A DNA stretch of 64,000 bases from an uncultured Nitrososphaerota archaeon (GTDB lineage: Archaea; Thermoproteota; EX4484-205; JAAOZP01): contig CAZWPT010000016.1 in NCBI GenBank assembly GCA_964635675.1, positions 18,522 to 82,521 of the forward strand, given 5' to 3'. The position numbers were made by a program, and so were the translations under genes. Under the pieces are notes generated by a model. That model worked only from the letters and a program-made list of their open reading frames with translations, had not been told where the DNA came from and did not search any database. Position 1 is the first letter of the stretch. Each line of letters begins with the position of its first letter. Positions 6,828 to 41,537 of the stretch are shown piece by piece.

Positions 6828-7466
6828 CTATTGTATTGTTGTCAGAAAAGGATTCGTGCTCCTCTCCCTTGCAATCGTTGAGGATGGGCCGTGACCCGGA
6901 TAAATCTTAGTCTCACCGGGAAGAACCATAAGCCTCCTCCCAATGGAATCCATAAGCTCCTTGAATGAGCCCCCTGGCAGGTCGGTTCTTCCGACAGAGC
7001 CTGCGAAAAACGTATCCCCAGTGAAAACGGTGAGGCGGTTGAGCAAAGATATGCTTCCCCTTGTATGACCAGGAGTATGAACAACCCTAAGGCTAATCTT
7101 TCCGAAAACTATCATGCTTCCATCAGTTAAAGTAGCGTCCGGCGTAACTGGTTCATGCCGGATGCCGAACAGAACCTGAAATCCCCGAGCGTCAGTCAAC
7201 ATGGGAGCATCATATTCGTGGATTAAGACTGGCGCGCCAGTCGCCCTCTTCAACCATTCATCCCCCGAAGTGTGGTCAGGATGCCAATGCGTATTGACAA
7301 TATACTTAATGTCTGCACCATATTTCTCTGCTTCACCCATAATAACCTGAAGCTCAGCCTCGCGAGTAAACCCGGGGTCTATTACGATAGCCTGCCGTGT
7401 TTCCGGGCAAACAAGCAGGTAACAGTTGGTTTGCAACACGCCGACTACAAGCTTCCTGATTATCAT
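6828..7466 (-). CDS. MBL-fold metallo-hydrolase (glyoxalase II-like)
   Basis: 212 aa with an HxHxDH motif (NTHWHPDHTSG) plus downstream His and Asp ligands (HTPGHT, GDTFFAG). Confidence 0.7.
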   Translation of the reverse strand: MIIRKLVVGVLQTNCYLLVCPETRQAIVIDPGFTREAELQVIMGEAEKYGADIKYIVNTHWHPDHTSGDEWLKRATGAPVLIHEYDAPMLTDARGFQVLFGIRHEPVTPDATLTDGSMIVFGKISLRVVHTPGHTRGSISLLNRLTVFTGDTFFAGSVGRTDLPGGSFKELMDSIGRRLMVLPGETKIYPGHGPSSTIARERSTNPFLTTIQ

Positions 7467-7608
7467 CTCTTGGGGGAAAAGCCTTCTGCTTTAAAAACCT
7501 ACGTTCCGAATTTCGCTAAACATGCAGAGAATTGTCTGCAAACCCGTGTGATAGCTGAAGCCTAAGAAGAGGGTTTTAAAATCACAGCTATATTCTGGGG
7601 TCGAACCC

Positions 7609-8577
7609 CTAATCCTGAAAAACGTTTTCAACCCACCTTTTCCTACCTGTTTTCACGAGGTGCTCAATCTCTGAGAGGCCTTCTGGAACACCCATCGGCC
7701 CCATTCTAGTAACCTTCAACGCGCCAGCAGCATTGGCGAAATCAAGAAGTCCTCTAAGCCCCCGTTTCTTCAAATAGCCGTATACTGCTGCAGCATCGAA
7801 AGCATCCCCGGCCCCGGTGGGGTCGACCTCTGGAACCATGTAGGCGGGCTCGAAAACAGTCTCCTGCTCACTTATACCCACGGAGCCCTTCTCGCCGATT
7901 TTCACTATTAAAAGTTTCACTCCATACTTGAATATTTCCTTCGAAGCCTCCTCTATATTTCTCTTTCCAGTTAAGTCGAACAGCTCAGCCTTAGAAGTCA
8001 TCACGATTTCAGCAGCTTCCAAAACTTTTTTCGATAGTTTACTTATCATGCGGGGCTCTATCAACTCAGCCCTAAGGTTCGGATCGTAAGTAACCATTAT
8101 ACCCGTCCTGTTCGCTATTTCAACAGCCCTGTAGCAGGATTCCCTGATTTCCTCCCCTATGGAGAGCGTGGAACCCATGATGTGCAGAACCTTGAACATT
8201 TTCACAAAATCCTCGTCTACATCATCCGGCCTGATCCTGGAGGCTGCGGAATGCTTTAAGTGAAACACGAATCTTCTACTACCGTCTGAGAAGTATGTTA
8301 CGAAGGCTATTCCAGTAGTGTATTCTTCACGGGTAAAAACATGCGTAGTGTCAACATTATCAGCAGCCAGCCTTTTCCTTAAAAGACTCCCGAAATCATC
8401 GTTCCCAACAGCGCCGATTATGGCTGATTTCAAGCCCAGCCTGGAGGCAGTGTCTATGAAGATTGCAGGAGCACCGCTTGGAAAAGGGCCAGCATATTCG
8501 CCAGTCTCATAATGAGGCATATCCCTCCCTTTCCTTACGAATTCAACAAGCACCTCGCCCACCGTTAGAACATCCAT
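7609..8577 (-). CDS. pfkB-family sugar kinase (ribokinase / 2-keto-3-deoxygluconate kinase-like)
   Basis: 322 aa with the C-terminal pfkB signature DPTGAGDAFDAAAVYG and an N-terminal Gly-rich substrate lid. Confidence 0.75.
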   Translation of the reverse strand: MDVLTVGEVLVEFVRKGRDMPHYETGEYAGPFPSGAPAIFIDTASRLGLKSAIIGAVGNDDFGSLLRKRLAADNVDTTHVFTREEYTTGIAFVTYFSDGSRRFVFHLKHSAASRIRPDDVDEDFVKMFKVLHIMGSTLSIGEEIRESCYRAVEIANRTGIMVTYDPNLRAELIEPRMISKLSKKVLEAAEIVMTSKAELFDLTGKRNIEEASKEIFKYGVKLLIVKIGEKGSVGISEQETVFEPAYMVPEVDPTGAGDAFDAAAVYGYLKKRGLRGLLDFANAAGALKVTRMGPMGVPEGLSEIEHLVKTGRKRWVENVFQD

Positions 8578-9943: not shown

Positions 9944-10696
9944 CTAGAATTCTAGGTTTAGCCTTTTTCTTTCGCCAACTATATGCTCAGCAACCTCCGC
10001 CACAGGAGCAACCCATATCTCGTCGCGATGCTTATGCAGGAATCTTAAAAACCCGGAGAGGTCTTCGTAGGAAACAGGCAGGTGCCCCTCGTCAATACCG
10101 TGGAACGTGAATATGGCCCATCTACTCTCGTGAACAGTCTTAACGGTTAAGCCTATCATCTCTTCACACCGCATTCTGTCGGCAGACCATGACCATAGCT
10201 CGTGTAGGTCGCAGGCTAGAGGTGAATTAGAATACCCCTTTTCCCCGGAAGCCCTAGCAGCCAGGAAGATTTCAGCCACAACCGGCACGTAGCTCCGCTT
10301 ATTCAAGCCCCTGCCTACACTGGTTTGGTAACACGGGTATGCGAAGGTCCGGCTACCGCCAAGTATAACCCTTCTTATCCTGTCATGGGCCTCAAGTATG
10401 TCCATGCGAACATCCTCTAGAGTCATGTTCTCCAGCCCTCTGCAACCAGGGTCTCCTGAAAAGTTGCATGAGCAAGGATGCGTAACTGTGTGATTACCTA
10501 TTTCATGACCAAGGTCAGCAATCTTCCTCCATGCTTTCAAAAAATCTCCATACTCTTCCTTAGGGTTTACGTAGAACGTTGCATTAAAGCCGAGCTCCTC
10601 GAGCAGAGGCACGCCTAGATCCAGTTGCGAATGCAAACCATCGTCGAAAGTCAGCGAGACAGCTCCTTTAAAGTCGCCCGGCCAATTAAACCTCAT
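9944..10696 (-). CDS. polysaccharide deacetylase (CE4 / NodB homology domain)
   Basis: 250 aa with the NodB motifs TFDDG and GNHTVTHP. Confidence 0.75.
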   Translation of the reverse strand: MRFNWPGDFKGAVSLTFDDGLHSQLDLGVPLLEELGFNATFYVNPKEEYGDFLKAWRKIADLGHEIGNHTVTHPCSCNFSGDPGCRGLENMTLEDVRMDILEAHDRIRRVILGGSRTFAYPCYQTSVGRGLNKRSYVPVVAEIFLAARASGEKGYSNSPLACDLHELWSWSADRMRCEEMIGLTVKTVHESRWAIFTFHGIDEGHLPVSYEDLSGFLRFLHKHRDEIWVAPVAEVAEHIVGERKRLNLEF

Positions 10697-11025
10697 AACG
10701 CAACATTTTCAAGCATGCTTTAAAAACTTAACCAAGACCTCTGAAAAAACCAGCGTGCGCTAACACATCCAGCCGGCAAGACCCGTATTAAGGCTTCAGA
10801 ACGATTTTTACCAAGCCTTGCTCCTCTTTGCTGAGAAGCATTTCTGAAACCATCACTATAGTCCTCCAGCCCCGAAGTCCTTGCCAATCGCGGCTGACAC
10901 TATTATGGAACGCGGGGGAGGATCGCATTTGAGATAAGCCTGATAGAAAAACGTTTTTTAGAGCGTTTTTAGCTAGTCTCAGGGGCACTGGGTCTGTTCA
11001 GGGCATTCGGGACACGCTTTTCAAC

Positions 11026-24688: not shown

Positions 24689-24715
24689 CCTTACTTGGTT
24701 CCGCAACAGTGTTTA

Positions 24716-26293
24716 ATGAGCGAAAAGGTCGTGATGAGCATCGATCAAGGCACCACGGGTTCACGAGTCTCACTGTACAAGCATGATGGAACACCTTATC
24801 CTAACGGCTGGTGTTACGTTGAGCATTCGCAAGCCTATCCTAAACCCGGCTGGGTTGAACACGACCCTGTTGAAATATGGCTGAACATTAAGCACTGCAT
24901 AAGGAACGTTCTTGATAAGACCCGTGTTAAACCAGGAGAAATTGTTGCGATAGGCGTTACCAATCAGCGTGAAACAGTTGTAGCGTGGAACCCTAAAACA
25001 GGTAGGCCCGTTTCAAACGCAATCGTCTGGCAGGATCGCCGGACAGCTAAGCTGGTTGACCACCTCCGGGAAAACTTTTTAAAAGACATTGTCGAGAAAA
25101 CCGGTTTGATTCCAGATAGCTATTTCTCAAGCACAAAGATATGGTGGATGCTTGAAAACATTCAGGGTCTGCGCGAAAAGGCTTTGAAAGGAGAAGTCGT
25201 TTTCGGAACTATAGACACATGGATCATATGGAACCTGACTAGCGGCTCTAGAGATGTTCAGACCCCGGAGTACAACGGTGCCTTCGTAACCGATTACAGT
25301 AACGCGTCTAGAACAATGCTCTTCAATATTCACAGGCTTGCGTGGGACGAGGACCTTGCAGAAATACAGGGTAAAATACCTGTTGAGGCGCTTGCACTAC
25401 CGAGGCCTAGCAGCGATAAAGACGTTTACGGATGGACTGGCCCAGAGGTCTCAAGCCTTTTCGAAGGCTTAAGCAAGCCGGTGACCGGTGACGCTGGAGA
25501 CCAGCAGGCCGCTTTACTTGGCCAAGCGGGGTTTGAAGCCTATGATGTGAAATGTACCTATGGCACAGGTAACTTCATACTGATGAACACTGGAGAGAAC
25601 AAGGTGCGCTCCAAGTCCGGGCTGCTGGCCACAATACTCTACAGTGTTGAACCGGGTAAAGCAGTCTATGCTCTCGAGGGAAGCGTTTTCATCACCGGTG
25701 CAGCAATCCAATGGCTTCGCGACGGCTTGAAGATAATCGAGGTCTCGGGGGAAGTGAATCCCCTTGCCGAAGCTGCTGAAGACACAGGCGGCACTTATTT
25801 TATACCGGCCTTCACAGGGCTTGGAGCACCCTACTGGGACCCGTATGCGAGGGGCATGATAATAGGTTTAACCAGGGGGACGGGTAGGAGGCATATTGCT
25901 AGGGCAGTTTTAGAATCCATCGCATACTTGACTCGCGACGTGGTTGAAGCAATGAGCAACGATACTGGCAGAAGGGTGGAAAAGCTTAAAGCAGACGGCG
26001 GCGCATCCCGGAGTGACTTCCTGCTTCAATTCCAGTCTGACATACTCAATGCGATTGTCATCAGGCCTTTTGTGCAGGAGACAACCAGTCTGGGAGCAGC
26101 CTACCTTGCTGGCCTCGCCGTGGGTTTCTGGAGAAGCATAAGTGAGGTTGAGAAAAACTGGAGGATGGAGAAGGAGTTTTCCCCTAGGATGAGTCGGGAA
26201 GTTGGAGAGAGGCTGTATAGTGGTTGGAAGGCGGCTGTTAAAAGATCTTTAGGATGGGCTAGGGAAGTGCCTTGGGCCTACGGCTACGAGTAG
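24716..26293 (+). CDS. glpK: glycerol kinase
   Basis: FGGY family with glycerol-kinase-specific motifs (MSIDQGTTGSR, AIVWQDRRTA). The ORF track starts at TTG 24695, but ATG 24716 lies 28-35 nt downstream of TATA-like boxes at 24670-24688. Confidence 0.9.
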   Translation: MSEKVVMSIDQGTTGSRVSLYKHDGTPYPNGWCYVEHSQAYPKPGWVEHDPVEIWLNIKHCIRNVLDKTRVKPGEIVAIGVTNQRETVVAWNPKTGRPVSNAIVWQDRRTAKLVDHLRENFLKDIVEKTGLIPDSYFSSTKIWWMLENIQGLREKALKGEVVFGTIDTWIIWNLTSGSRDVQTPEYNGAFVTDYSNASRTMLFNIHRLAWDEDLAEIQGKIPVEALALPRPSSDKDVYGWTGPEVSSLFEGLSKPVTGDAGDQQAALLGQAGFEAYDVKCTYGTGNFILMNTGENKVRSKSGLLATILYSVEPGKAVYALEGSVFITGAAIQWLRDGLKIIEVSGEVNPLAEAAEDTGGTYFIPAFTGLGAPYWDPYARGMIIGLTRGTGRRHIARAVLESIAYLTRDVVEAMSNDTGRRVEKLKADGGASRSDFLLQFQSDILNAIVIRPFVQETTSLGAAYLAGLAVGFWRSISEVEKNWRMEKEFSPRMSREVGERLYSGWKAAVKRSLGWAREVPWAYGYE

Positions 26294-26321
26294 ACAGGGA
26301 TAAGTTGGCAGGTGGCTCACC

Positions 26322-27833
26322 ATGGCCGGCGAGACCCGTGTCGCGATAATAGGCGCCGGAGTCATAGGGGCCTCTATAGCCAGGGTTTTAAGCAGGTTTG
26401 AAAACCTGCAAGTGTATGTTTTAGAGAAAAACTATGATGTTGGAGGAAGCGCCAGCAGGGCTAACACTTCAGTAATACATCCGGGTCACGAAGAGGATCC
26501 TGATACTCATCCTTTGCGCGCGAGACTCTGCGTCGAGGGCAATGCCTTGTGGCGGAGATGGTGCAGTGAGCTAGAGGTCACGGCTAAATGGGTCGGCGAG
26601 CTCATGCTGTTCGAGAGGGGTGAGGAGGAGAAGGAGGCTGAGAAGTATGTTGAACTTGCCCGTAGGAACAAAGTCGGCGGCGTAAGGATTGTTCAAGGGA
26701 GGGAGTTGCTTGCGATGGATGAATCCGTCAACAGGAATGTTGAGGGAGGCGTTTACGCGCCTACGGCGGGCCTAATCTCCCCTTTTGAAGCAGTAGTGGC
26801 TTTGATCGAGAACGCTGTTGACAATGGTGTTAAGCTTTTCACCGAGACGCATGTAAAGAGCATCGTCGTCAGAAACAGTACTGTCGTAGGTGTTGATACG
26901 AATAGTGGGTTTATTGAGGCGGACATCGTCATCAATGCGGCTGGACTGAATGCTGACGAAGTGTCGCGTGCCGCAGGGGTTGAACCCTGGTTCAAAATAA
27001 AGCCCAGGAAGGGCGAATACATAATTTTCGACAAAGACGCCGAGCCTAGGCCTAGGCTCGTGCTGCACACAATGCCCTCAACCATTACGAAAGGGGTTTA
27101 CGCCTTAACAACGGTCCACGGCAACCTGATGATAGGCCCGACTGCTAAGGACCTGGACTATGATTCTAAGGAAGACACGTCCACGAGCTCGGAAGGCTTA
27201 GATTACCTGATGAAGGAGGCTGGGAGAATTTTTGCGAAAACCCCCTCACGTTCCCAAATAATCAAGTTTTTCGCTGGATTAAGGCCTGAACCCTCTGACG
27301 GAGAATGGCTTATAAAAGCATACTTTGAACCATACGGCTTCATAAACGTGGCAGGCATAAGGTCGCCGGGGTTAACAGCTGCACCCGCAATAGCCTATTA
27401 TGTCTCAAGCCTCCTCTCTGAGACATACGGTTTTAAACTTGTTGAGAAACCGGGTTGGAAACCTCTAAGGAGAAGAATTACTCCAGTCAGCGAAATGGAT
27501 TACGCTAACCTCGACAAACACATAGGGGAAAATCCAAATTATGGTGAGATCGTATGTTTCTGCAACAATGTTTCAAGAGCTGAGATCTCAGAAGCCATTG
27601 AGAGAATGCGGACAATCGGCGTCAAGACAGTGACCTTCGATGGCGTAAAGCTTAGGACGACAGCCGGCTTCGGCAAGTGCCAAGCTTCAAGATGCAGGAT
27701 ACGGGTTGCCCTCCTGATATCTGAAGCAACCGGGATCCCCCTGTGTCGCGTCGCTTTGAAAAGGTCTAGCATTGGTATTGGAGGGGTTAAGACGCTTTGG
27801 ATGGAGAGGGAGGGGAATGCGCAGGATGCTTGA
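26322..27833 (+). CDS. glpA: anaerobic glycerol-3-phosphate dehydrogenase subunit A-like FAD oxidoreductase with a C-terminal BFD-like [2Fe-2S] domain
   Basis: 503 aa with the N-terminal FAD motif VAIIGAGVIGASIA and a C-terminal BFD-like Cys pattern (CFCNNVSRAEISEAI...GKCQASRC). It is 28 nt downstream of glpK. Confidence 0.8.
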   Translation: MAGETRVAIIGAGVIGASIARVLSRFENLQVYVLEKNYDVGGSASRANTSVIHPGHEEDPDTHPLRARLCVEGNALWRRWCSELEVTAKWVGELMLFERGEEEKEAEKYVELARRNKVGGVRIVQGRELLAMDESVNRNVEGGVYAPTAGLISPFEAVVALIENAVDNGVKLFTETHVKSIVVRNSTVVGVDTNSGFIEADIVINAAGLNADEVSRAAGVEPWFKIKPRKGEYIIFDKDAEPRPRLVLHTMPSTITKGVYALTTVHGNLMIGPTAKDLDYDSKEDTSTSSEGLDYLMKEAGRIFAKTPSRSQIIKFFAGLRPEPSDGEWLIKAYFEPYGFINVAGIRSPGLTAAPAIAYYVSSLLSETYGFKLVEKPGWKPLRRRITPVSEMDYANLDKHIGENPNYGEIVCFCNNVSRAEISEAIERMRTIGVKTVTFDGVKLRTTAGFGKCQASRCRIRVALLISEATGIPLCRVALKRSSIGIGGVKTLWMEREGNAQDA

Positions 27834-29076
27834 GCAGGAGTATGATGTCATCGTCATAGGCGGTGGGCCAGCCGGATTGTCTGCAGCAACCAAGGCTGTT
27901 GAAAAAGGTTTGAAAACAATGCTTCTTGAAAACAGGGAGATGCTTGGCGGTATTCCTCTTCAATGCATCCACACGGGTTTCGGAGTGCATTGTTTGAAGG
28001 AGGATTTGACTGGAACCGAGTTTATAGCCAGGCTTATAGATAGGGCGGAGAGGCTAGGCGTGGAAAGCCTGGTGAGGACCCATGTCCTATCGATTAACAT
28101 CGAATCCCTCCGGGAGAAGACTGTTTACGCTGTCAGTCCTAAAGGCCTTTTAAAAATACGTGTTAAAGCAATAATATACGCTGCCGGCGCTAGGGAAAGA
28201 CACCAGTTTGAGGTTGGGCTGACCGGTGATAGGCCTGACGGTGTTTACACGGCGGGTGAGGCTCAGGCGCTCATGGATGTTTATGGCGTCCTACCCGGTA
28301 GGAGAATAGTAATCCTAGGCTCCGGGGACGTTGGGCTGATAATGGCTAGGAGGTTTGCCATGGAGAAGGCGGAGGTAAAGGCTGTGATAGAGGCCCTGCC
28401 CTACCCGGGTGGCTTGACTAGAAACGTCGTTCAATGTCTCCAAGACTTCGACATACCTCTCTACCTGAGTCACATGGTTCGAGAAGTCAGGGGACATGAC
28501 AGGGTTGAGAAAGTCGTCGTCACGAGGGTTAACGGAGAAATGAAGCCTGTGGAGGGGTCTGAATTCGAAGTAGAGTGCGACACTCTAATTGTTTCCGCAG
28601 GGTTAAGGCCGGATATAGACCTTCTGGAGAAAATGGGTGTTAAAACAGACCCGGCTACCGGAGGGCCTGTAGTGAACGAGTTCTACGAGACCAGCTTACC
28701 GCTGGTTTTCACCGCAGGCAATGCTCTCGTCATAAATGATCTCGTGGATTACGATGTGGAGCAGGGCGAGGCTGCGGCAACATTTGCCTCAAAGCTTTTA
28801 GATAACTACGAGACCCCGACCATAAATTGGAGACAAGTATACAGGGGGAGGAACATTAGGCTGGTTGTGCCCCAGCTCGTCAGCGGAACAATGGATGTTT
28901 TGTTCTACGCTAGGGTTCAACATCCAGAAAATAACGTGAACATTACTATTCGGGAAACAGGTTTTAAAAGAAGGCTTCTCAGGGTTAAGCCGGGAGAGAT
29001 GATTAGGATAAGGGTTCCAGTTGAAGAACTGGCAGGATTGAATGGAGAGAAGCTTATTTTCGAGGTGGTTGAATGA
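27817..29076 (+). CDS. FAD/NAD(P)-binding pyridine nucleotide-disulfide oxidoreductase (GlpB-like partner of GlpA)
   Basis: Carries DVIVIGGGPAGLSAA and a second dinucleotide motif RIVILGSGDVG. The start is probably Met16 of the track ORF (27817). It overlaps the glpA 3' end. Confidence 0.6.
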   Translation: MRRMLEQEYDVIVIGGGPAGLSAATKAVEKGLKTMLLENREMLGGIPLQCIHTGFGVHCLKEDLTGTEFIARLIDRAERLGVESLVRTHVLSINIESLREKTVYAVSPKGLLKIRVKAIIYAAGARERHQFEVGLTGDRPDGVYTAGEAQALMDVYGVLPGRRIVILGSGDVGLIMARRFAMEKAEVKAVIEALPYPGGLTRNVVQCLQDFDIPLYLSHMVREVRGHDRVEKVVVTRVNGEMKPVEGSEFEVECDTLIVSAGLRPDIDLLEKMGVKTDPATGGPVVNEFYETSLPLVFTAGNALVINDLVDYDVEQGEAAATFASKLLDNYETPTINWRQVYRGRNIRLVVPQLVSGTMDVLFYARVQHPENNVNITIRETGFKRRLLRVKPGEMIRIRVPVEELAGLNGEKLIFEVVE

Positions 29077-30695: not shown

Positions 30696-31802
30696 ATGCA
30701 GGGATTCCTGAGGAGAGGAGGGCCAGCCATGGAGGTTAGGGAAAGGATTGTAAGCGTTCTTAGTGGTAGAATGCCCGACAAGATACCTTGGCTAATATAT
30801 TCAAACCATCTCCCCAGGGGGAGTTTTGAACGTAGAATGAGGGAAATGGGGCTTGGGCTGGATGAAAGATGCAGCATCTACAGGATCTTTATGCCGAACG
30901 TGAGGATCGAGAGTAGAACAATCGGAGACTATGTTTACACGACTTACCGTACACCGGTTGGAGAGCTTCACTCCAAGACTCGGATTGGAATGAGATTCCA
31001 ATTCCCAGGCGGCTCCTGGACGGTTGAATATCCAGTCAAAAACACGGATGATGTTAAGGCTTTAAGGTTCATGATAGAGGATACTGTTTACGAGCCGGAT
31101 TACGAGAATTATGTTCGAATAAAGGAGGAACTTGGAGAAGACGGGATTGTCACTGTCTGGGCTGACTACACTCCTTTAATGAAGATAATCGTCAGATACA
31201 TGGGTTTCAGGACTTTTGCATTAATGTACCGCAAAAACCGCGGTGTGATAGAAGACCTGATCAACATTTTAGACGAGAGCTTCTCAAAAATGTACAGGAT
31301 TATAGCTGATTCGCCGGCGGAAATAGTTAGGATAGGCGACAATACTGATTCACTACTGGTATCCCCAAGCCTGTTCGAAAAGTACTGTCTCCCATACTAT
31401 GACAAGTATGCCGAGACCCTTCACGAGAAGGGGAAAATAGTTATTTCACACATGGATGGTAGGCTTAAAGCGCTTAAGAATCTGATTGCTAAAACTAGGC
31501 TTGATGCTATAGAGGCCTTCACACCCCCACCGGGAGGCGATTTACCGCCTAGAGAAGCCAAGGAGGCTTGGAGTGATAAAGCTGTATGGATGAATTTCCC
31601 GGAGGAAGTGTTTCTTAGAACCCCTGAAGAGATTGAACGCTATACCACTGCACTGCTTGAGGAAATAGCTCCTGGAGAAAGCTTCATCATAAGTGTTACT
31701 GAAGACATTCACCCTGAGCATTATAGAAAAGGGATTGAAACAGTAACGAAGACACTCTGCAGGTACGGCGGACTCCCTATAAAGCCGCCTTTAGCCGGCT
31801 GA
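30696..31802 (+). CDS. uroporphyrinogen decarboxylase (URO-D) family protein (the same family as MtaA/MtbA-type methylcobamide methyltransferases)
   Basis: 368 aa. The N-terminus RERIVSVLSGRMPDKIPW and the central and C-terminal regions fit URO-D/CIMS-like conservation (..SPSLFEKYCLPYY.., ..ISHMDG..). The true start is probably MEVRER (30729). Confidence 0.5.
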   Translation: MQGFLRRGGPAMEVRERIVSVLSGRMPDKIPWLIYSNHLPRGSFERRMREMGLGLDERCSIYRIFMPNVRIESRTIGDYVYTTYRTPVGELHSKTRIGMRFQFPGGSWTVEYPVKNTDDVKALRFMIEDTVYEPDYENYVRIKEELGEDGIVTVWADYTPLMKIIVRYMGFRTFALMYRKNRGVIEDLINILDESFSKMYRIIADSPAEIVRIGDNTDSLLVSPSLFEKYCLPYYDKYAETLHEKGKIVISHMDGRLKALKNLIAKTRLDAIEAFTPPPGGDLPPREAKEAWSDKAVWMNFPEEVFLRTPEEIERYTTALLEEIAPGESFIISVTEDIHPEHYRKGIETVTKTLCRYGGLPIKPPLAG

Positions 31803-34061: not shown

Positions 34062-35798
34062 ATGCCGGTGAAAAAAAGCTGGCCGGTGCCGAGCGATATT
34101 GAAATCGCTTACAAAACCGAGCTTTACCCAATTAAAAAGGTTGCGGAGCATGCTGGGATTCTGGAAGAAGAATTGGAGCCCCATGGGAAATACGTGGCTA
34201 AAATCGATTATAGGAGCGTTCTCAACAGGCTGAAAAACAGGCCCAATGGAAAATTGATTATCGTAACTGCAATCACCCCCACGCCACTCGGCGAGGGAAA
34301 GACAACAGTCTCCATAGGTTTGGGCCAAGCCTTCTACGAAAGAGGTTTAAAGGTTATCAATACTCTGCGAGAACCATCTAAGGGTGTTACGTTTGGAATA
34401 AAGGGAGGCGCAACCGGAGGCGGCTACTCCCAAGTCCTGCCGATGGACAGGATTAATCTTAATTTCACAGGAGACATACCAGCGGTGGAAATTGCCCATA
34501 ACCTTTGTGCAGCAGCCATAGATGCTAGCATACTTCACGGAAACCCTTTAAGCATCGACCCCCTATCAATCGAATGGCCCTATTGCATGGATGTGGAGGC
34601 GAGGGCTTTAAGACGAGCCGTCATAGGATTGGGAGGAAGGTCAAACGGTTACCCTAGGGAGGCGCGCTGGAGCATAACTGTAGCGACGGAAACAGCGGCC
34701 ATTCACGCATTAGCCACTGGGCTGGAAGATTTAAGAAACAGGCTTGGAAGAGCTGTTGTAGCCTACACCTATAGTAGAAAACCGGTAACGTGCGAAGAGC
34801 TTGGAGTAGCCGGGGCCATGGCAGCTCTGCTCGTGGAAGCCATTAAGCCTAATCTAGTCCAATCCACAGAGGGCCACCCTGTTTTAATCCATGGATTCCC
34901 GTTTGCCAACATAGCGCATGGTACCAACTCGATAATAGCTGATCTAGTGGCTTTGAAGCTTGCGGATTACGTTATCTGCGAGACCGGGTTTGGCTCTGAA
35001 TGCGGCTTCTCCAAGTTCTGCGATATTGTATGCCGCCAGTCCCCCGAGATAAGGCCTGATTGCGCCGTCATCGTCTGCACGGTTAGAGCCCTTAAAGAAC
35101 ACGGCGGCGCCTTCCTGCTTAGCCCAGGAAAGCCCTATAAGAAGGTTAAAAGGGCGGCTGAGACGGAAAACCTCCAAGCGGTTGAAAAAGGTTGTGAGAA
35201 TTTAGCTAGACACATAGAAATAGTCCATAAATACGGTATTCCCGCCGTAGTAGCCGTCAACAGGTTTACCACTGACACTGAGAGGGAGATAAGGCTGGTG
35301 TGTGAAAAAGCCATTGAGGCTGGCGCCGATGACGTTGCCGTTGTAGACCCCTGGTCCAAAGGAGGGGAGGGTTGCCAGGAACTCGTTGACAAGGTTCTTG
35401 AAGCGATGAGGAAGCCGCGCGAGCTGAGGTTTCTTTACTCGGATGAAGCCACCATCAAGGAGAAAATAGAGACCATAGCTACAGAGCTCTATGGAGCTGG
35501 CGACGTGAAATATTCCCCTGAAGCAGAGGAAAAGATAGAGTTTTACAGTAGCCTAGGGTACGACAGGCTTCCGGTAAACATGGCTAAAACACCCCTCTCC
35601 CTTTCGCACGACCCTCTCTGGAAGAATGTGCCTAAGAACTACACGCTTCCAGTCAACGACATTTTCGTCTTCGTTGGAGCCGGCTTCCTTATCCCGATAT
35701 GCGGCGAAATACAGCTTATGCCCGGTCTCCCGAGGAAACCCGCCTTCCTAGGGGTCGACGTGGAAACGGAAACCGGAAGGATAAGAGGCCTCTTCTAG
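34062..35798 (+). CDS. fhs: formate--tetrahydrofolate ligase
   Basis: 578 aa with the FTHFS signature PTPLGEGKTT and full-length conservation. A perfect SD GGAGG sits 9 nt upstream of the ATG. Confidence 0.92.
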   Translation: MPVKKSWPVPSDIEIAYKTELYPIKKVAEHAGILEEELEPHGKYVAKIDYRSVLNRLKNRPNGKLIIVTAITPTPLGEGKTTVSIGLGQAFYERGLKVINTLREPSKGVTFGIKGGATGGGYSQVLPMDRINLNFTGDIPAVEIAHNLCAAAIDASILHGNPLSIDPLSIEWPYCMDVEARALRRAVIGLGGRSNGYPREARWSITVATETAAIHALATGLEDLRNRLGRAVVAYTYSRKPVTCEELGVAGAMAALLVEAIKPNLVQSTEGHPVLIHGFPFANIAHGTNSIIADLVALKLADYVICETGFGSECGFSKFCDIVCRQSPEIRPDCAVIVCTVRALKEHGGAFLLSPGKPYKKVKRAAETENLQAVEKGCENLARHIEIVHKYGIPAVVAVNRFTTDTEREIRLVCEKAIEAGADDVAVVDPWSKGGEGCQELVDKVLEAMRKPRELRFLYSDEATIKEKIETIATELYGAGDVKYSPEAEEKIEFYSSLGYDRLPVNMAKTPLSLSHDPLWKNVPKNYTLPVNDIFVFVGAGFLIPICGEIQLMPGLPRKPAFLGVDVETETGRIRGLF

Positions 35799-35990: not shown

Positions 35991-36905
35991 ATGAGGATGT
36001 TCAGGTTTAAGCAGGAGCAGAAAATTTTTGATATTGCCGGCGTGAAGGTTGGTGGCCAGCCGGGTCAACTACCTACTGTAATGATAGGAAGCATATTCTA
36101 TGGTAAACAGAAAATATTTGAGGATGAGAAGGCTGGAGTGTTCTCTAAAGAGAAGGCTGAAGACCTCTTGAATAAGGAGGGGGAGATATCGGATAAAACC
36201 GGTAATCCGAGGATTGTAGACGTATGCTGCACATGGCCCCAGGCTTTTGGAAAACTCATCGAGTTCGTGGCTGACAAGATCGACGGGCCCCTCGCTATAG
36301 ACGGAACTACTGAGGAGGCGAGGATTGCAGGAGCCAGATACGTCGGTGAAGTCGGGTTGTCTGAACGCGTCGTCTACAACTCGATAATGCCGCATATTAA
36401 AGAGGCTGAGATAGCCGCGATTAGGGAGGCTAGGATCAAGTCCGCCGTCTTACTGACGTATAACGCTAAAAGCCCTACGATAGCAGGGAGAATGCAGGTG
36501 CTTGATGAGCTTTTAGCCTTAGCCTCGAAAGCTGGTGTCGAGAAAATCCTGGTGGATACGACTGTCCTCGACATCCCAGACCCGGGACCAGTCAGCAAAG
36601 TCGTCTACCTGGTAAAGGAGAAATACGGGTTACCAGCCGGGGCGGGAACGCATAACGCAGTCCAGAGGTGGAATAAGATGCGGAGAATGGATAAAACACT
36701 GTTCTCAATCGCAAGCAGCGTAGCCGACGTGCTTCCCATATTCATGGGGGCGAACTTCGTAATATATGGGCCTATAGACAATGCTTTAAACGCGTATTTC
36801 CACTGTGCACTGGCTGACGCTTACGTGGCTTACAGCATGCGGCAGGAGTTTGGAACAAGACCATTAACCAGCAACCATCCGTTGTTCAAAATATTCAAGG
36901 CATAG
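35991..36905 (+). CDS. MtrH/AcsE-family pterin-binding methyltransferase (methyl-THF/H4MPT:corrinoid methyltransferase-like)
   Basis: 304 aa. The N-terminus MFRFKQEQKIFDIAGVKVGGQPGQLPTVMIGSIFY closely follows the MtrH family start. Confidence 0.65.
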   Translation: MRMFRFKQEQKIFDIAGVKVGGQPGQLPTVMIGSIFYGKQKIFEDEKAGVFSKEKAEDLLNKEGEISDKTGNPRIVDVCCTWPQAFGKLIEFVADKIDGPLAIDGTTEEARIAGARYVGEVGLSERVVYNSIMPHIKEAEIAAIREARIKSAVLLTYNAKSPTIAGRMQVLDELLALASKAGVEKILVDTTVLDIPDPGPVSKVVYLVKEKYGLPAGAGTHNAVQRWNKMRRMDKTLFSIASSVADVLPIFMGANFVIYGPIDNALNAYFHCALADAYVAYSMRQEFGTRPLTSNHPLFKIFKA

Positions 36906-37046: not shown

Positions 37047-37748
37047 TCAACACCTGTCTTGTAGGGGTTTCTCCTCCCCTCCGCGAAGTATCCTAGCCTT
37101 CCCGTGCTCAACTATGATTCTTCCTTCCTGGAAAAGACGGATCCCTTCCACCAAGGCTTCACCCTCAGCCTCTTGAACCCTCCTCTTCAAAGTCTCCTCA
37201 TCGTCATCTTCCCTGACCTCAACAGCCTTCTGTATTATTATTGGTCCAGCATCCATTTTCTCGTCAACAAAGTGGAGGGTGCAACCTGTAATCTTCACTC
37301 CGGATTCAAGCACTGCGCGATGGACGTTTAGGTCCCAGCCTAGAAAGGCTGGGAGAAGCGAGGGATGAATATTCATAATCCTATTCCTAAACTTTTTCAC
37401 GAACTGGGGGCTTAGGATCCTGTTATAACCTATGAGCAGCACGAGGTCAACCTTCCTACGCTCAAGCTCCACGGCGACCTGCATATCGTAATCCACAGGA
37501 TCCTTACCCTTAGGGTCTATGAATATTGCCTCTATACCGTTTCGTCTCGCCCGCTCCAGTGCGTACGCGTCCTTCTTATTGCTTATGAGACAGACTATTT
37601 CAGCATTCAATCTTTTGTCTCTAATAGCCTCCAGGATGGGCTCCATGTCGGTAGCGCGGGTTGATGCAAGTATACCTATTCTCAGCAACGCGCACACACT
37701 ACGAGGCCTCGGAGGCGCATTCCACCAGATTACGTATGATGGTCGCAA
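37047..37748 (-). CDS. purN: phosphoribosylglycinamide formyltransferase
   Basis: Formyl-transferase core (RIGILAS..., NIHPSLLPAFLG, HFVDEKMDAGPII). The track start (TTG 37748) overlaps the folD 3' end. The true start is probably near 37688. Confidence 0.75.
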   Translation of the reverse strand: MRPSYVIWWNAPPRPRSVCALLRIGILASTRATDMEPILEAIRDKRLNAEIVCLISNKKDAYALERARRNGIEAIFIDPKGKDPVDYDMQVAVELERRKVDLVLLIGYNRILSPQFVKKFRNRIMNIHPSLLPAFLGWDLNVHRAVLESGVKITGCTLHFVDEKMDAGPIIIQKAVEVREDDDEETLKRRVQEAEGEALVEGIRLFQEGRIIVEHGKARILRGGEEKPLQDRC

Positions 37749-38532
37749 CCGTCACCGGGCCCACCCCACCAGGAACCGGGGTTATCGCGGACACTTTTTG
37801 GGAAACGTTTTGAAAATCCACATCTCCCACGAGAGTGCCTTCGACGAAGCTGGTTCCAGCATCGATTACTACTGCGCCTTCAGCAACCATTTCGTCGGTT
37901 ATGAGCCGTGGGACACCGGTTGCAGAGATTAAGACATCCGCTTCCAGTGTCTTCTCGCTCAAGTTTTTAGTCTTGACGTGGCAAACGGTGACTGTTGCCA
38001 TTCGCGAGGTAAGCATCGCGAACAGGGGCCTTCCGACTAGTATACTGTTGTTCACGACGACAACATCAGCACTCTCAACGTTAATTCCATACCACTCCAA
38101 AATCCTAATCACAGCGTTTGCCGTCGCCGTGGGCCTGGCTTCCCGACCAGATAGCAATCTTCCAAGGTTTACCGGGTGCAGACCGTCAACGTCCTTCCTA
38201 ACGTCTAAGGCTTCCAATACGTTCAGCGGCGACACGTTTTTCGGAAGTGGTAGTTGAACCACTATACCATGAACACCTGTATCCTTATTCAACTCCTTTA
38301 TGAGCGAGATGAGCTCGGCCTCGGAAGGATTGTTAAGCTCATGCACCACTGCTCTCCCCCCTACAGAGTTGCAGGCTTTAGCCTTCATCTTAACGAAAGA
38401 ATCCTGGGCCTTTGAACCTGAAGCCTTTATAATGTGTAGTGATGGTGTGAAACCCAGCTTCTCGATCCTTGCCTTAGCCTCAGCCAGAATAGCGTCAGCC
38501 ACCGGCTTACCACTCAATATCCTAGCCGCCAT
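37699..38532 (-). CDS. folD: bifunctional methylenetetrahydrofolate dehydrogenase / methenyl-THF cyclohydrolase
   Basis: 277 aa. The FolD N-terminus ILSGKPVADAILAEAKARIE, VVQLPLPKNV and a C-terminal Rossmann domain are all present. Confidence 0.88.
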   Translation of the reverse strand: MAARILSGKPVADAILAEAKARIEKLGFTPSLHIIKASGSKAQDSFVKMKAKACNSVGGRAVVHELNNPSEAELISLIKELNKDTGVHGIVVQLPLPKNVSPLNVLEALDVRKDVDGLHPVNLGRLLSGREARPTATANAVIRILEWYGINVESADVVVVNNSILVGRPLFAMLTSRMATVTVCHVKTKNLSEKTLEADVLISATGVPRLITDEMVAEGAVVIDAGTSFVEGTLVGDVDFQNVSQKVSAITPVPGGVGPVTVATIIRNLVECASEAS

Positions 38533-38835
38533 CAGGAATCACCTTGGGCCCTTGTAAATCGTGAACCCCGACGCAAGAACCCTTGAAACGAGGGGGACGC
38601 ATCCACGTGTCCTGCTGAAGCCTACTTTCCAACCATGAGAGTTACGCCCATCTCTATTGCCAGCTTCATCAACCTTTACCAGTTCTCCAGCCAATGAGAC
38701 ATCGCGTCCTTCTCAAACACATGCGTCCTTATAAATGCTTCGATTCTGTTTCCCCCATCAGCCGAAATTTTATAAACCTTTAAAGCGCGAACCCCGGGAT
38801 GAGCAGCGCTTTCAACACGTGGGTTTCTAACGTTC

Positions 38836-40224
38836 ATGAAATGTTTTTATAGGGAACTTCTTTTGCAGTCGGGAATGAACGAGGGATCCGGCAACGCTAA
38901 GAATGAATTCAGGAAATTAGCGAGGGAAAGGATCCTAGCGATGTCGGGTCAGGAGAGGAAGGATAAGAGCTCAAAGGCGGTTTCGAATCTTAAAAGACTA
39001 GAGGAGTTCTCGAGGGCAAAGTGCGTCATGGTTTACGTTTCTAAAGAGGACGAGGTTGATACGATCGGGCTTATTACTGACATGTTGAAATCCGGTAAAA
39101 GAGTCGTAGTGCCTCTTGTTGATCAAGAAAGCGGGGAGCTGATTCCCTGCGAGATAACAACCCTTGAAGAACTAGTTGCCGGAACATTCGGCGTGATGGA
39201 GCCGGATCGCAAGAATGCGAGAATAGTTAGCACGGATGAGATAGACCTTGTGGTGGTTCCTGGGAGGGTTTTTGACAGAAATTGCAACAGGCTTGGCAGG
39301 GGAAAGGGCTACTTCGACAGGTTTTTAAAGAGATTTAACGAAGGGAAGAAAGTGATCGGTTTAGCCTTCTCCGAACAGGTTTTCGACAGTATACCGGTTG
39401 ACGAGAACGATGTGAAGGTTGACATCGTGGTTACTGAATCCAGCATCATACGGCGCGACCCTAGAGAACCGAGAGCGGTTTTAAGTAAAAAAACATTCGA
39501 CGTTCATAGGCTTGCCACCTCCTCCCTGTTCATGGCGCTCTTCATCGTGCTAAGGGCAGTCCCAGCCTTCCCAATCATAGGGGTACCTGGAGGAAGCTTC
39601 CCGGTTTCAGACGTCATTCTGCCGCTTTACGGCGTCTTGCTGGACCCCGTCCACGGCGCCACCGTAATCCTCCTGGGGACGATTCTAGGTTTCTTAATAA
39701 AGCCTCCTAGGTTCCTTTACCTAGACTTCCTACCACCGCTGGTTAACACTTTGACGGTAAGTCTGCTCTGGAGGAGGAAAACGTGGTTAGCAATCCTCAT
39801 CTATGTCTCCGCGTTAACCGTTTTCATGACGGGGCCGTTTAGCCTGCTCCTTATACACCTTGACCTTCCCGGCTTAGAGGTGGACTTGCCATTCCACTGG
39901 CTGCACCTCATCGCAATACCCGTCTCCCTGGTTCTCATTAGACTTGGCAATTTTAAACATAAGGCTGACCCAATATTATTGAAGCTTTCAGGATGCGCCC
40001 TACTCGGAACCATGGCGCAACACTCCACTGGTAGTGCGCTATTTGAATACGTGTTCGGCCTAACCGGAATGATTAACAGAGAAGGGTTTGAGAAAATCTG
40101 GTATACGGTCTTCTGGATATATCCTATAGAGAGGATGCTTCTAGTCCTAGCCAGCACGCTGGTTGGAGTACCAGCTACACGAGTACTGACTAGGATGATA
40201 TGGAGGCCTCAGAACCCGTCGTAA
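38836..40224 (+). CDS. 5-formyltetrahydrofolate cyclo-ligase (MTHFS) fused to a C-terminal roughly 240-aa polytopic membrane domain (ECF S-component-like)
   Basis: One uninterrupted 462-aa ORF. Residues 1-200 carry the MTHFS motifs (CVMVYVS, DLVVVPGRVFDRNCNRLGRGKGYFDRFL). Residues 225-462 form 6-7 TM helices with an ILPLYGVLLDPVHGATVILLGTILGFLI segment that resembles ECF vitamin S-components. Confidence 0.6.
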   Translation: MKCFYRELLLQSGMNEGSGNAKNEFRKLARERILAMSGQERKDKSSKAVSNLKRLEEFSRAKCVMVYVSKEDEVDTIGLITDMLKSGKRVVVPLVDQESGELIPCEITTLEELVAGTFGVMEPDRKNARIVSTDEIDLVVVPGRVFDRNCNRLGRGKGYFDRFLKRFNEGKKVIGLAFSEQVFDSIPVDENDVKVDIVVTESSIIRRDPREPRAVLSKKTFDVHRLATSSLFMALFIVLRAVPAFPIIGVPGGSFPVSDVILPLYGVLLDPVHGATVILLGTILGFLIKPPRFLYLDFLPPLVNTLTVSLLWRRKTWLAILIYVSALTVFMTGPFSLLLIHLDLPGLEVDLPFHWLHLIAIPVSLVLIRLGNFKHKADPILLKLSGCALLGTMAQHSTGSALFEYVFGLTGMINREGFEKIWYTVFWIYPIERMLLVLASTLVGVPATRVLTRMIWRPQNPS

Positions 40225-41537
40225 GGCTCACCCGACCATATCGGCCTTGCTTCCCCAACGGTGAAAACCGAGCCCGTAACCAGTATTCTACCTTCTTCCC
40301 CAGCGCACGATAATGCTCGAGCCACCGCCTCCCTAACAGTCGGCTTAGAACTGTATTTAGCATCCAGACTCTTCAAAACATCCTCCATCCTCTCAACCGG
40401 GAGAGCCCTCCCCATGACGCCATGCTGAGTCAGGATGAACTCGTCCGTGACCCTTGCAATAGACCGGAGAATCTTGTCATACTCCTTATCCGAGGAAATA
40501 CTGACGACTGTCTTAAACTTGGCTCCCGGCAGCATCTCCTCTATGCTCGACGACAATGCTTCAGCAGCCGCCGGATCCTTAGCGCAATCCAATATTACTA
40601 GGGGACGTTTACTAATCGGCTCCAGCCTCCCTGGCCAAACAATGTCGGCAAGACCCCTCCTTATGGCTTCCTCGTTAAAGTTTGATCCGCCAGTTAACTC
40701 GGAGAACTTGAGATAGCTCGCTATGGCCGTCGATACGTTCACCGCCTGAAAACTCCCCCTGAGCGAGACCTTAAGGTTCTTCAACAGCGTCTTCCCCAGC
40801 TCAATATCTAAAGTCATCCCGGTCAGGTCGGACCTTAAAACCCTGTGCTTGACATCCCTAGGTACCAAGGTGAGCTCTGAGCCCAATTCCCTGCAGCGTT
40901 CCTCTATGACTCTGAGCGCTGAGCCTGAACAAGCCGATACCGTGGGGCGTCCACGCCTTATTATGCCTGCTTTCTCAAAGGCTATTTTCTCAACAGTATC
41001 ACCCAAGTGCTTCATATGCTCTAAAGAGACGTTGGTTATTACTGAGAGCACAGGGTCGCATGCGTTTGTCGCATCGAGCCTGCCTCCCATACCCACCTCG
41101 ACGACGGCCACGTCAACTTTTTTCATAGAGAAATACTTATACGCCATCGAGACGTTACACTCGAAAAACGTTGGAAACCGTCCAAGCCTTTTCGAGACTT
41201 TTTCACCAGCCTCTTTAACCTCCTCATACGTCTCCACGACTTCCCTCCTGGTTATTTCCCGGCCATCCACAACTATCCTCTCGGTGAACCTGCATAGGTG
41301 AGGCTTCGTGAAAGTTCCAACCCTAAGACCCTCCTCGCGTAGGATTGAGCTTATCATGCTGACGGTGGAACCCTTCCCATTAGTACCCCCTACTAGGATT
41401 ACGGGATAGTCCTGCTCCGGGTTTCCAAGCTCGTTCAAAACCCCCTTGACAACATCCAAGCCTAGCTTTATCCCCCTCAGCTCGTAGAGCTCCTTGAGAA
41501 CCCGCAGGTACTCGGCGTCATCAGTCCAAGCACTCAA
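40209..41537 (-). CDS. folC: folylpolyglutamate synthase / dihydrofolate synthase
   Basis: 442 aa. It has the Mur-ligase P-loop VGGTNGKGST, and the FolC-type central and C-terminal domains are present. Confidence 0.8.
   Translation of the reverse strand: MSAWTDDAEYLRVLKELYELRGIKLGLDVVKGVLNELGNPEQDYPVILVGGTNGKGSTVSMISSILREEGLRVGTFTKPHLCRFTERIVVDGREITRREVVETYEEVKEAGEKVSKRLGRFPTFFECNVSMAYKYFSMKKVDVAVVEVGMGGRLDATNACDPVLSVITNVSLEHMKHLGDTVEKIAFEKAGIIRRGRPTVSACSGSALRVIEERCRELGSELTLVPRDVKHRVLRSDLTGMTLDIELGKTLLKNLKVSLRGSFQAVNVSTAIASYLKFSELTGGSNFNEEAIRRGLADIVWPGRLEPISKRPLVILDCAKDPAAAEALSSSIEEMLPGAKFKTVVSISSDKEYDKILRSIARVTDEFILTQHGVMGRALPVERMEDVLKSLDAKYSSKPTVREAVARALSCAGEEGRILVTGSVFTVGEARPIWSGEPYDGF

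Follow-up and report, generated by a model that had tools for sequence, protein, structure and literature searches.

FolT, the folate-specific S-component of group II energy-coupling factor (ECF) transporters, is known from Lactobacillus and Enterococcus (PDB 5d0y, 4z7f and 4huq; TIGR04518). Pnu-type carriers are paired with trapping kinases (PnuC with NadR, PnuT with thiamine kinase), so that facilitated vitamin uptake is made directional by ATP-dependent conversion (PMC5749112). Among S-components, the solitary BtuM works without an ECF module and is co-localised with BtuR; it has been suggested to rely on metabolic trapping (PMC6072759). How cargo is moved by solitary S-components without the ECF motor is an acknowledged open question (PMC11109136; PMC6072759). 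In this work, we analysed a 64,000-nucleotide stretch of contig CAZWPT010000016.1 from an uncultured Nitrososphaerota archaeon (hereafter the window, meaning the whole stretch), in which one open reading frame (ORF) joins a predicted 5-formyltetrahydrofolate cyclo-ligase (MTHFS) to a membrane domain modelled with the ECF S-component fold.

The fused protein and its two domains

By its profile matches, the N-terminal half is a complete predicted 5-formyltetrahydrofolate (5-formyl-THF) cyclo-ligase. The Pfam model PF01812 aligned over its full length (profile positions 1-186 of 186) with 143.1 bits against a cut-off of 27 (E = 1e-41), and the equivalog model TIGR02727 scored 163.7 bits against a cut-off of 84.9. 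Solved MTHFS structures were also matched, with E = 6e-32 for 1sou and E = 6.5e-28 for human 3hxt. The motif GRGKGYFDR occupies residues 154-162 (nucleotides 39295-39321) and aligns with 1sou, and GRGxGYFD is present in all 18 of the 18 fused homologues. An earlier note, made from the letters of this DNA, had already called a complete MTHFS domain with this motif, and the profile results bear it out.

The C-terminal half matched ECF S-component families only. On PF12822 (ECF_trnsprt), whose gathering cut-off is 30.7 bits, the whole protein scored 30.2 bits and the isolated domain 31.0-31.9 bits; PF07155 gave a weak match, and the FolT family TIGR04518 was matched with E = 2e-5. When 100 family members were compared with Pfam, only S-component families recurred (PF12822 in 16, best E = 4e-11; PF07155 in 20), and the sole recurring family in NCBIfam was TIGR04518, matched by 12 of the 100 with E values as low as 6.6e-10. 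Ten members were then scanned individually: TIGR04518 matched six of the seven that are MTHFS-linked, the best at 2e-9 with 37 bits, but none of the remaining three. A profile of the membrane family found no match among PDB chains at E <= 10, and a search of PDB chains with one family member returned chance matches to Met-tRNA ligase only (E ~ 0.9).

Structural comparison of the AlphaFold model placed the membrane domain closest to FolT 5d0y (score 12.0, with 148 of 155 residues aligned), followed by BioY (11.9), PanT (11.8), RibU (11.7), the FolT structures 4huq and 4z7f (11.6), CbiM, ThiT, HmpT and YkoE (11.1 to 8.9) and BtuM (8.6), with the first unrelated protein at 8.1. Because these scores top that of the first unrelated protein, the modelled domain, which contains the six helices of the S-component fold, can be firmly assigned to that fold; the scores give no ligand identity. 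In the model, the domain exceeds typical S-components by about 75 residues, and it shows an additional short helix, two beta-hairpins and long helices at its C-terminal end. The earlier note had described a polytopic domain of about 240 residues with 6-7 transmembrane helices, resembling an ECF S-component and to be compared with the corresponding Pfam families, and this description was sound: seven helices are modelled, and S-component families are what the domain matches. Its more specific proposal fared differently, as the segment ILPLYGVLLDPVHGATVILLGTILG (residues 261-285), read there as a substrate-binding loop, forms helix 2 in the model, and the reading as a loop for the substrate was dropped. 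In the full-length model, the linker falls below a predicted local distance difference test (pLDDT) value of 50 (model residues 198-207), the predicted template modelling score (pTM) is 0.57, and no fixed arrangement between the MTHFS and membrane domains is predicted.

The same two-domain architecture was found in about 20 protein clusters, with 55-100% identity, from NCBI, JGI, ENA and Logan assemblies. In a scan of one genome per GTDB species, one ORF carried both MTHFS and the membrane domain in seven representatives, four of which are labelled Candidatus Brockarchaeota and the rest Thermoproteota or Nitrososphaerota. FolC(-PurH) is convergent with the fusion in all seven, and PurN-FolD(-SHMT) lies upstream and divergent from it in six, which are all those whose contig extends that far. 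A search of other archaeal genomes, as the earlier note had suggested, therefore recovers the fusion in Brockarchaeota-type metagenome-assembled genomes (MAGs) with conserved folate synteny. Both halves are under purifying selection: against close relatives, dN/dS lies at 0.10-0.21 for MTHFS and at 0.13-0.16 for the membrane half, and the linker has a higher dN than either domain.

In three related lineages (P0021, P0030 and P0031), the same synteny includes a separate MTHFS gene (192-208 aa) directly upstream of the membrane gene, the two genes either overlapping by 20 nt or being separated by 4 or 45 nt. The split junction is identical in two independent samples for P0021 and P0030, and P0031 is represented by a single contig. 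Such pairs of separate genes are what is classically found alongside a gene fusion, and they point to a functional tie between the two parts that does not depend on their being fused. They also raise the question of whether the fused ORF could be an assembly chimera or a sequencing frameshift joining two genes, since a single indel could make or break the fusion at this position. We rejected this origin, to which we give practically no weight, because the same in-frame junction recurs across the independent assemblies and the seven species representatives, both halves are conserved by selection as described above, and linker indels among homologues are multiples of three. As a separate observation, a different MTHFS membrane fusion was seen once (P0028; L014 4144-5439), in which an N-terminal Rce1-like CPBP intramembrane protease domain precedes MTHFS and the gene shares an operon with an S41 peptidase.

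A proposed role in folate salvage

We lean towards a bifunctional folate-salvage protein, in which a FolT-like carrier for reduced folate would be tethered to MTHFS and the FolC encoded nearby would trap the product. The earlier note had likewise proposed that uptake of folinic acid or a related folate vitamer is coupled to its conversion, and the family match and the recurrence of the fusion support that reading. The ligand of the C-terminal FolT-like domain would be a reduced folate from outside the cell, most probably 5-formyl-THF (folinic acid): as the substrate of the fused enzyme, this is the obvious candidate. The bound folate would then be exposed to the cytoplasm through the toppling motion typical of S-components. 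Hanging from helix 1 by a flexible basic linker on the cytoplasmic side, the MTHFS domain would use ATP to convert the released 5-formyl-THF into 5,10-methenyl-THF. This product would feed FolD, formate-tetrahydrofolate (THF) ligase (FTHFS), PurN, PurH and SHMT, which are encoded around the gene, and polyglutamylation by the convergent FolC would keep the vitamin trapped. 5-Formyl-THF is the most stable reduced folate, a property relevant in hot springs. We infer the ligand, the transport direction and the coupling of uptake to catalysis, which are probably as outlined here; for the energy source, two candidates are weighed below. In Brockarchaeota, methylotrophy and formate assimilation run on THF (PMC8065059); the supplement to that description has no rows on genes of folate biosynthesis.

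The distribution of charged residues and the helix-1 motif bear on how such a protein would sit in the membrane and whether it would transport at all. Across 100 homologues, lysine and arginine (K+R) are concentrated at the C-terminus, in the N-terminal linker, in the turn between helices 3 and 4 and in the loop between helices 5 and 6, and L1, the hairpin and the helix 6-7 loop are depleted of them; by the positive-inside rule, the predicted topology is N-in/C-in, as in S-components. Because the K+R statistics place the N-terminus inside, the ATP-using enzyme would lie in the cytoplasm. S-components dock on EcfT through the AxxxA motif of helix 1, which non-transport versions of the fold do not have (PMC11109136). 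Alanine occupies position 230 in 87 of 91 and position 234 in 83 of 91 of the other family members, giving AxxxA, and the fused proteins carry S230 and A234 (18 of 18 for each), giving SxxxA.

Conceivably, though this is rather improbable, the membrane domain has no transport role: it would anchor MTHFS in the membrane, or sense a ligand, and so localise or regulate the enzyme, much as this fold serves in 5TMR sensor kinases and in MreD. Versions of the fold that carry soluble domains have been put to use in sensing and scaffolding (PMC11109136), and both the change from AxxxA to SxxxA in the fused proteins and the lack of an ECF module nearby would suit such a function. However, the sensor and MreD versions lack the helix-1 small-xxx-small motif, which is kept here in 83-87 of 91 relatives as AxxxA and in 18 of 18 fused proteins as SxxxA. 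In addition, the soluble modules of sensor kinases are C-terminal, whereas the enzyme is N-terminal here, and the family consists mostly of stand-alone proteins of 250 aa without an output domain.

An exhaustive profile search against 1.84 billion representatives gave only 388 clusters at E <= 1e-3 and 63 at E <= 1e-30. Almost all of them are stand-alone proteins of about 250 aa, one cluster is fused, and most members have neither a Pfam match nor a name. The family to which the membrane domain belongs is thus archaeal, uncharacterised and small, at about 390 clusters. Proteins that share 55-59% identity with the window protein are linked to MTHFS and FolC, and in every locus of this MTHFS-linked subfamily the domain is fused or adjacent to MTHFS, with FolC convergent. 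A branch with 38% identity adjoins a cluster of DUF447, GHMP-kinase and DHPS-like Pterin_bind(+DUF6513+DUF4346) genes (L005 4699-8735; L025 9923-13950; L029 564-2560), which looks like methanopterin-type pterin biosynthesis; in L005, a QueT S-component lies 5 kb away. One family member adjoins PurF. A large Bathyarchaeia branch with about 30% identity is stand-alone and follows 1-20 nt 3' of a LarC-like gene (PF01969, Ni_insertion), usually with a DUF885 gene next (L027, L030-L033 and L035-L039, with the match at about 10000; L007 8001-8795; L015 8001-8843), and its carrier may be tied to nickel-pincer cofactor metabolism. Two further loci are recorded here for completeness: one Bathyarchaeia contig (L034) bears two S-like paralogues 2 kb apart (7216-7944 and 9956-10759), and in L040 (9962-10725) the S-like gene is broken into two overlapping ORFs, possibly by a frameshift or as a pseudogene.

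From these contexts, the family seems to behave like other S-component families, with branch-specific ligands. Because the genomic contexts differ by branch, function is transferable only within the MTHFS-linked branch; a transfer from the LarC- and pterin-linked relatives, which are only 26-39% identical and have other specific residues, was dropped. The same contexts raise the prospect of a carrier for another ligand, for example p-aminobenzoyl-glutamate, a pterin or some further product of folate breakdown, or else an unrelated micronutrient, in which case the link to MTHFS would reflect shared purine/folate operon regulation. That the sister subfamilies adjoin the pterin-type cluster or follow the LarC-like gene, and that the invariant D297, H357, H396 and E432/R433 are common to all these contexts, speaks for this explanation. 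We nevertheless consider it unlikely, as FolT is the only recurring curated S-component family and its matches among the ten scanned proteins fall on the MTHFS-linked ones. Moreover, covalent fusion to an enzyme with 5-formyl-THF as its sole known substrate, together with an always convergent FolC, points to intact reduced folate, and the folate-linked subfamily has 27 specific positions of its own, many of them aromatic.

Several observations weigh against the folate-salvage proposal. The curated FolT cut-off of 60 bits is not reached, with 22.0-24.2 bits for the protein here and at most 37.4 bits among its relatives, and identity of the membrane domain to solved FolT is 11%. Because of the failed threshold, we filed the domain as divergent FolT-like rather than as FolT. 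Every fused protein has serine in place of the first alanine of the helix-1 AxxxA, with the register against the canonical motif presumed. The distant relatives beside LarC-like or pterin genes show that the family is not uniformly folate-linked. The fusion itself is dispensable, and is not obligatory because three lineages have separate genes. Finally, the window encodes no ABC (ATP-binding cassette) ATPase and no EcfT, and 24 related loci have neither within 10 kb of the gene.

The last point concerns the energy source. Because no ABC ATPase ORF lies nearby, the locus is not a group I operon. The check for ecfA and ecfT that the earlier note had proposed thus came out empty locally, but ecfT has been reported in 14 of 15 Brockarchaeota MAGs, with ecfA1 in 3 of 15, ecfA2 in 2 of 15 and almost no recognised S-components (supplement, PMC8065059). 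Since ecfT is so widely reported, a shared ECF module encoded elsewhere is possible. The carrier may dock on an EcfAA'T module encoded elsewhere, in the style of group II, or may be a solitary carrier pulled by the ATP-dependent conversion, and the evidence favours neither. A bolder version would see a self-contained folate importer independent of any ECF module, that is, a solitary S-component made directional by its attached ATP-dependent enzyme (group translocation of a vitamin), and would regard the family of about 390 clusters as a new S-component clade whose other branches serve tetrahydromethanopterin (H4MPT)/pterin and LarC-type nickel-pincer cofactor metabolism. We put this forward tentatively, as a doubtful extension of the folate-salvage proposal.

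The locus and its neighbours

The coordinates of the gene, its parts and its neighbours are collected in Table 1. The earlier note had reported a single 462-aa ORF with no stop or frameshift. The ORF is indeed uninterrupted, but the product is probably shorter, at 449 aa, because the homologues mostly start at M14 and a TATA-like box lies about 27 nt upstream. The fused homologues are mostly 444-452 aa long and begin at the M14 equivalent, and clusters P0001 and P0006 (453 aa) are called from four codons upstream of it. The TATA-like TTTTTATAG at 38844-38852 is spaced about 27 nt 5' of the ATG at 38875, which by this spacing is probably a leaderless start. The 13-codon N-terminal extension was dropped as a real part of the protein, M14 being the start in most homologues; the shorter product leaves the fusion finding unaffected.

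Table 1 Features of the fusion locus in the window, with strand and basis of assignment.
Feature	Position	Strand	Basis
Fused ORF as listed, 462 codons plus stop, uninterrupted	38836..40224	+	ORF list
Probable real CDS (coding sequence), 449 aa, start at M14 of listed ORF	38875..40224	+	Homologue starts and TATA-like box
5-Formyltetrahydrofolate cyclo-ligase (MTHFS) domain, residues 22-201 (predicted)	38899..39438	+	PF01812, TIGR02727
Linker, basic and variable, residues 202-222, 6 K/R	39439..39501	+	Disordered in model
ECF S-component-fold membrane domain, residues 223-456, seven helices and two beta-hairpins (modelled)	39502..40203	+	AlphaFold model, family matches
Helix-1 small-xxx-small motif S230-L-F-M-A234	39523..39537	+	At the AxxxA position of the wider family
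Family-wide invariant polar and aromatic positions D297/F298, W355/H357, H396/G399, W422/F426, Y429-P-x-E432-R433	39721..40134	+	Alignments of up to 113 sequences
FolC-type folylpolyglutamate/dihydrofolate synthase (Mur ligase)	40209..41537	-	Mur_ligase_M and Mur_ligase_C matches
FolD, divergent from the fusion	37699-38532	-	Domain match and conserved synteny
PurN, divergent from the fusion	37047-37748	-	Domain match and conserved synteny
Formate-THF ligase (FTHFS)	34062-35798	+	Domain match; THF one-carbon context
MtrH-family methyltransferase	35991-36905	+	Domain match; THF one-carbon context

The FolC-type gene is convergent with the fusion, and its 3' end overlaps the fusion ORF by 16 nt. 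Its orthologues also bear FOL3_C, and its position is kept in every related locus. The domain matches of FolD, PurN and the FolC-type Mur ligase agree with the folate gene cluster between folD/purN and folC that had been read from the letters alone. With the listed TTG start at 37748, the PurN ORF shares 50 nt with the 3' end of FolD; since its Formyl_trans_N match starts at residue 23, the real PurN start is probably further downstream. In the lineage of the window, the SHMT gene that more distant Brockarchaeota carry between FolD and the fusion is absent, and 38533-38874 is taken up by an intergenic region of about 300 nt with several TATA-like boxes and no Rfam match. For a THF riboswitch in this 5' intergenic region, the Rfam scan returned chance matches only. 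A scan for sigma-70 promoters and terminators gave nothing informative for archaeal DNA.

Further upstream, the MtrH-family gene lies directly 3' of the formate-THF ligase gene, and a URO-D/MtaA-like gene (30696-31802, + strand) lies 4 kb upstream. The protein that passes methyl groups from the corrinoid protein on to THF in Brockarchaeota is not known (PMC8065059), and the MtrH-family and URO-D/MtaA-like genes are candidates for this transfer. The region 24695-29076 (+ strand) encodes glycerol kinase (FGGY) followed by two GlpA/GlpB-type FAD-dependent oxidoreductases, apparently a glycerol utilisation cluster.

Comparison with known systems

The earlier note had not recognised this architecture as described, and the literature gave the same picture. 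Searchable papers, including the description of Brockarchaeota (PMC8065059) and a 2024 survey of S-component folds and fusions (PMC11109136), make no mention of an MTHFS-membrane fusion or of a folate transporter of Brockarchaeota or Bathyarchaeia, and a divergent archaeal S-component fused to MTHFS was not found described in them. In public annotation, the fused proteins are named "5-formyltetrahydrofolate cyclo-ligase" only. A natural fusion of an S-component with an enzyme that consumes its presumed cargo would provide a compact, testable model of enzyme-driven trapping. It would also assign a likely function to a small family of archaeal membrane proteins that are mostly unnamed, and would supply a candidate S-component for Brockarchaeota, which are reported with EcfT and almost no recognised S-components. 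For uncultured THF-based archaea of hot springs, the fusion suggests how folate may be obtained or recycled, which bears on cultivation media, e.g. on folinic-acid supplementation.

FolT is the closest comparator, being the only curated S-component family matched by the membrane domain, and both have, on the presumed register, a small-xxx-small motif in helix 1. Firmicutes folT genes reportedly adjoin folate salvage genes, a point attributed to Eudes et al. in 2008; the association with MTHFS and FolC here is similar, and is supporting rather than defining. Unlike FolT, the domain here has about 235 residues rather than about 160, with the additional helix, hairpins and long C-terminal helices noted above, and its 11% identity and 22-37 bits stay below the 60-bit cut-off. 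Furthermore, the protein here is archaeal and covalently fused to an enzyme, with no adjacent ECF module and no THF riboswitch upstream.

BtuM offers a second parallel: this carrier, too, has a genetic link to an ATP-dependent cytoplasmic enzyme acting on its cargo, the adenosyltransferase BtuR (PMC6072759). BtuM works without an ECF module, whereas module independence is open to doubt here, as Brockarchaeota MAGs are reported with EcfT. BtuM and BtuR are separate proteins, in contrast to the single polypeptide of the window, and the cargo is vitamin B12 rather than, presumably, folate; BtuM also performs chemistry itself (decyanation). Pnu-type systems follow the same logic of uptake plus conversion as proposed here, but with an unrelated fold, with separate enzymes, and with phosphorylation in place of cyclisation. 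The stand-alone MTHFS/YgfA enzymes (PF01812, TIGR02727; 1sou, 3hxt) are matched by the N-terminal 200 residues at full length, above threshold and with the GRGxGYFDR motif. The canonical enzyme, however, is a soluble single-domain protein, whereas the enzyme described here carries a C-terminal membrane domain.

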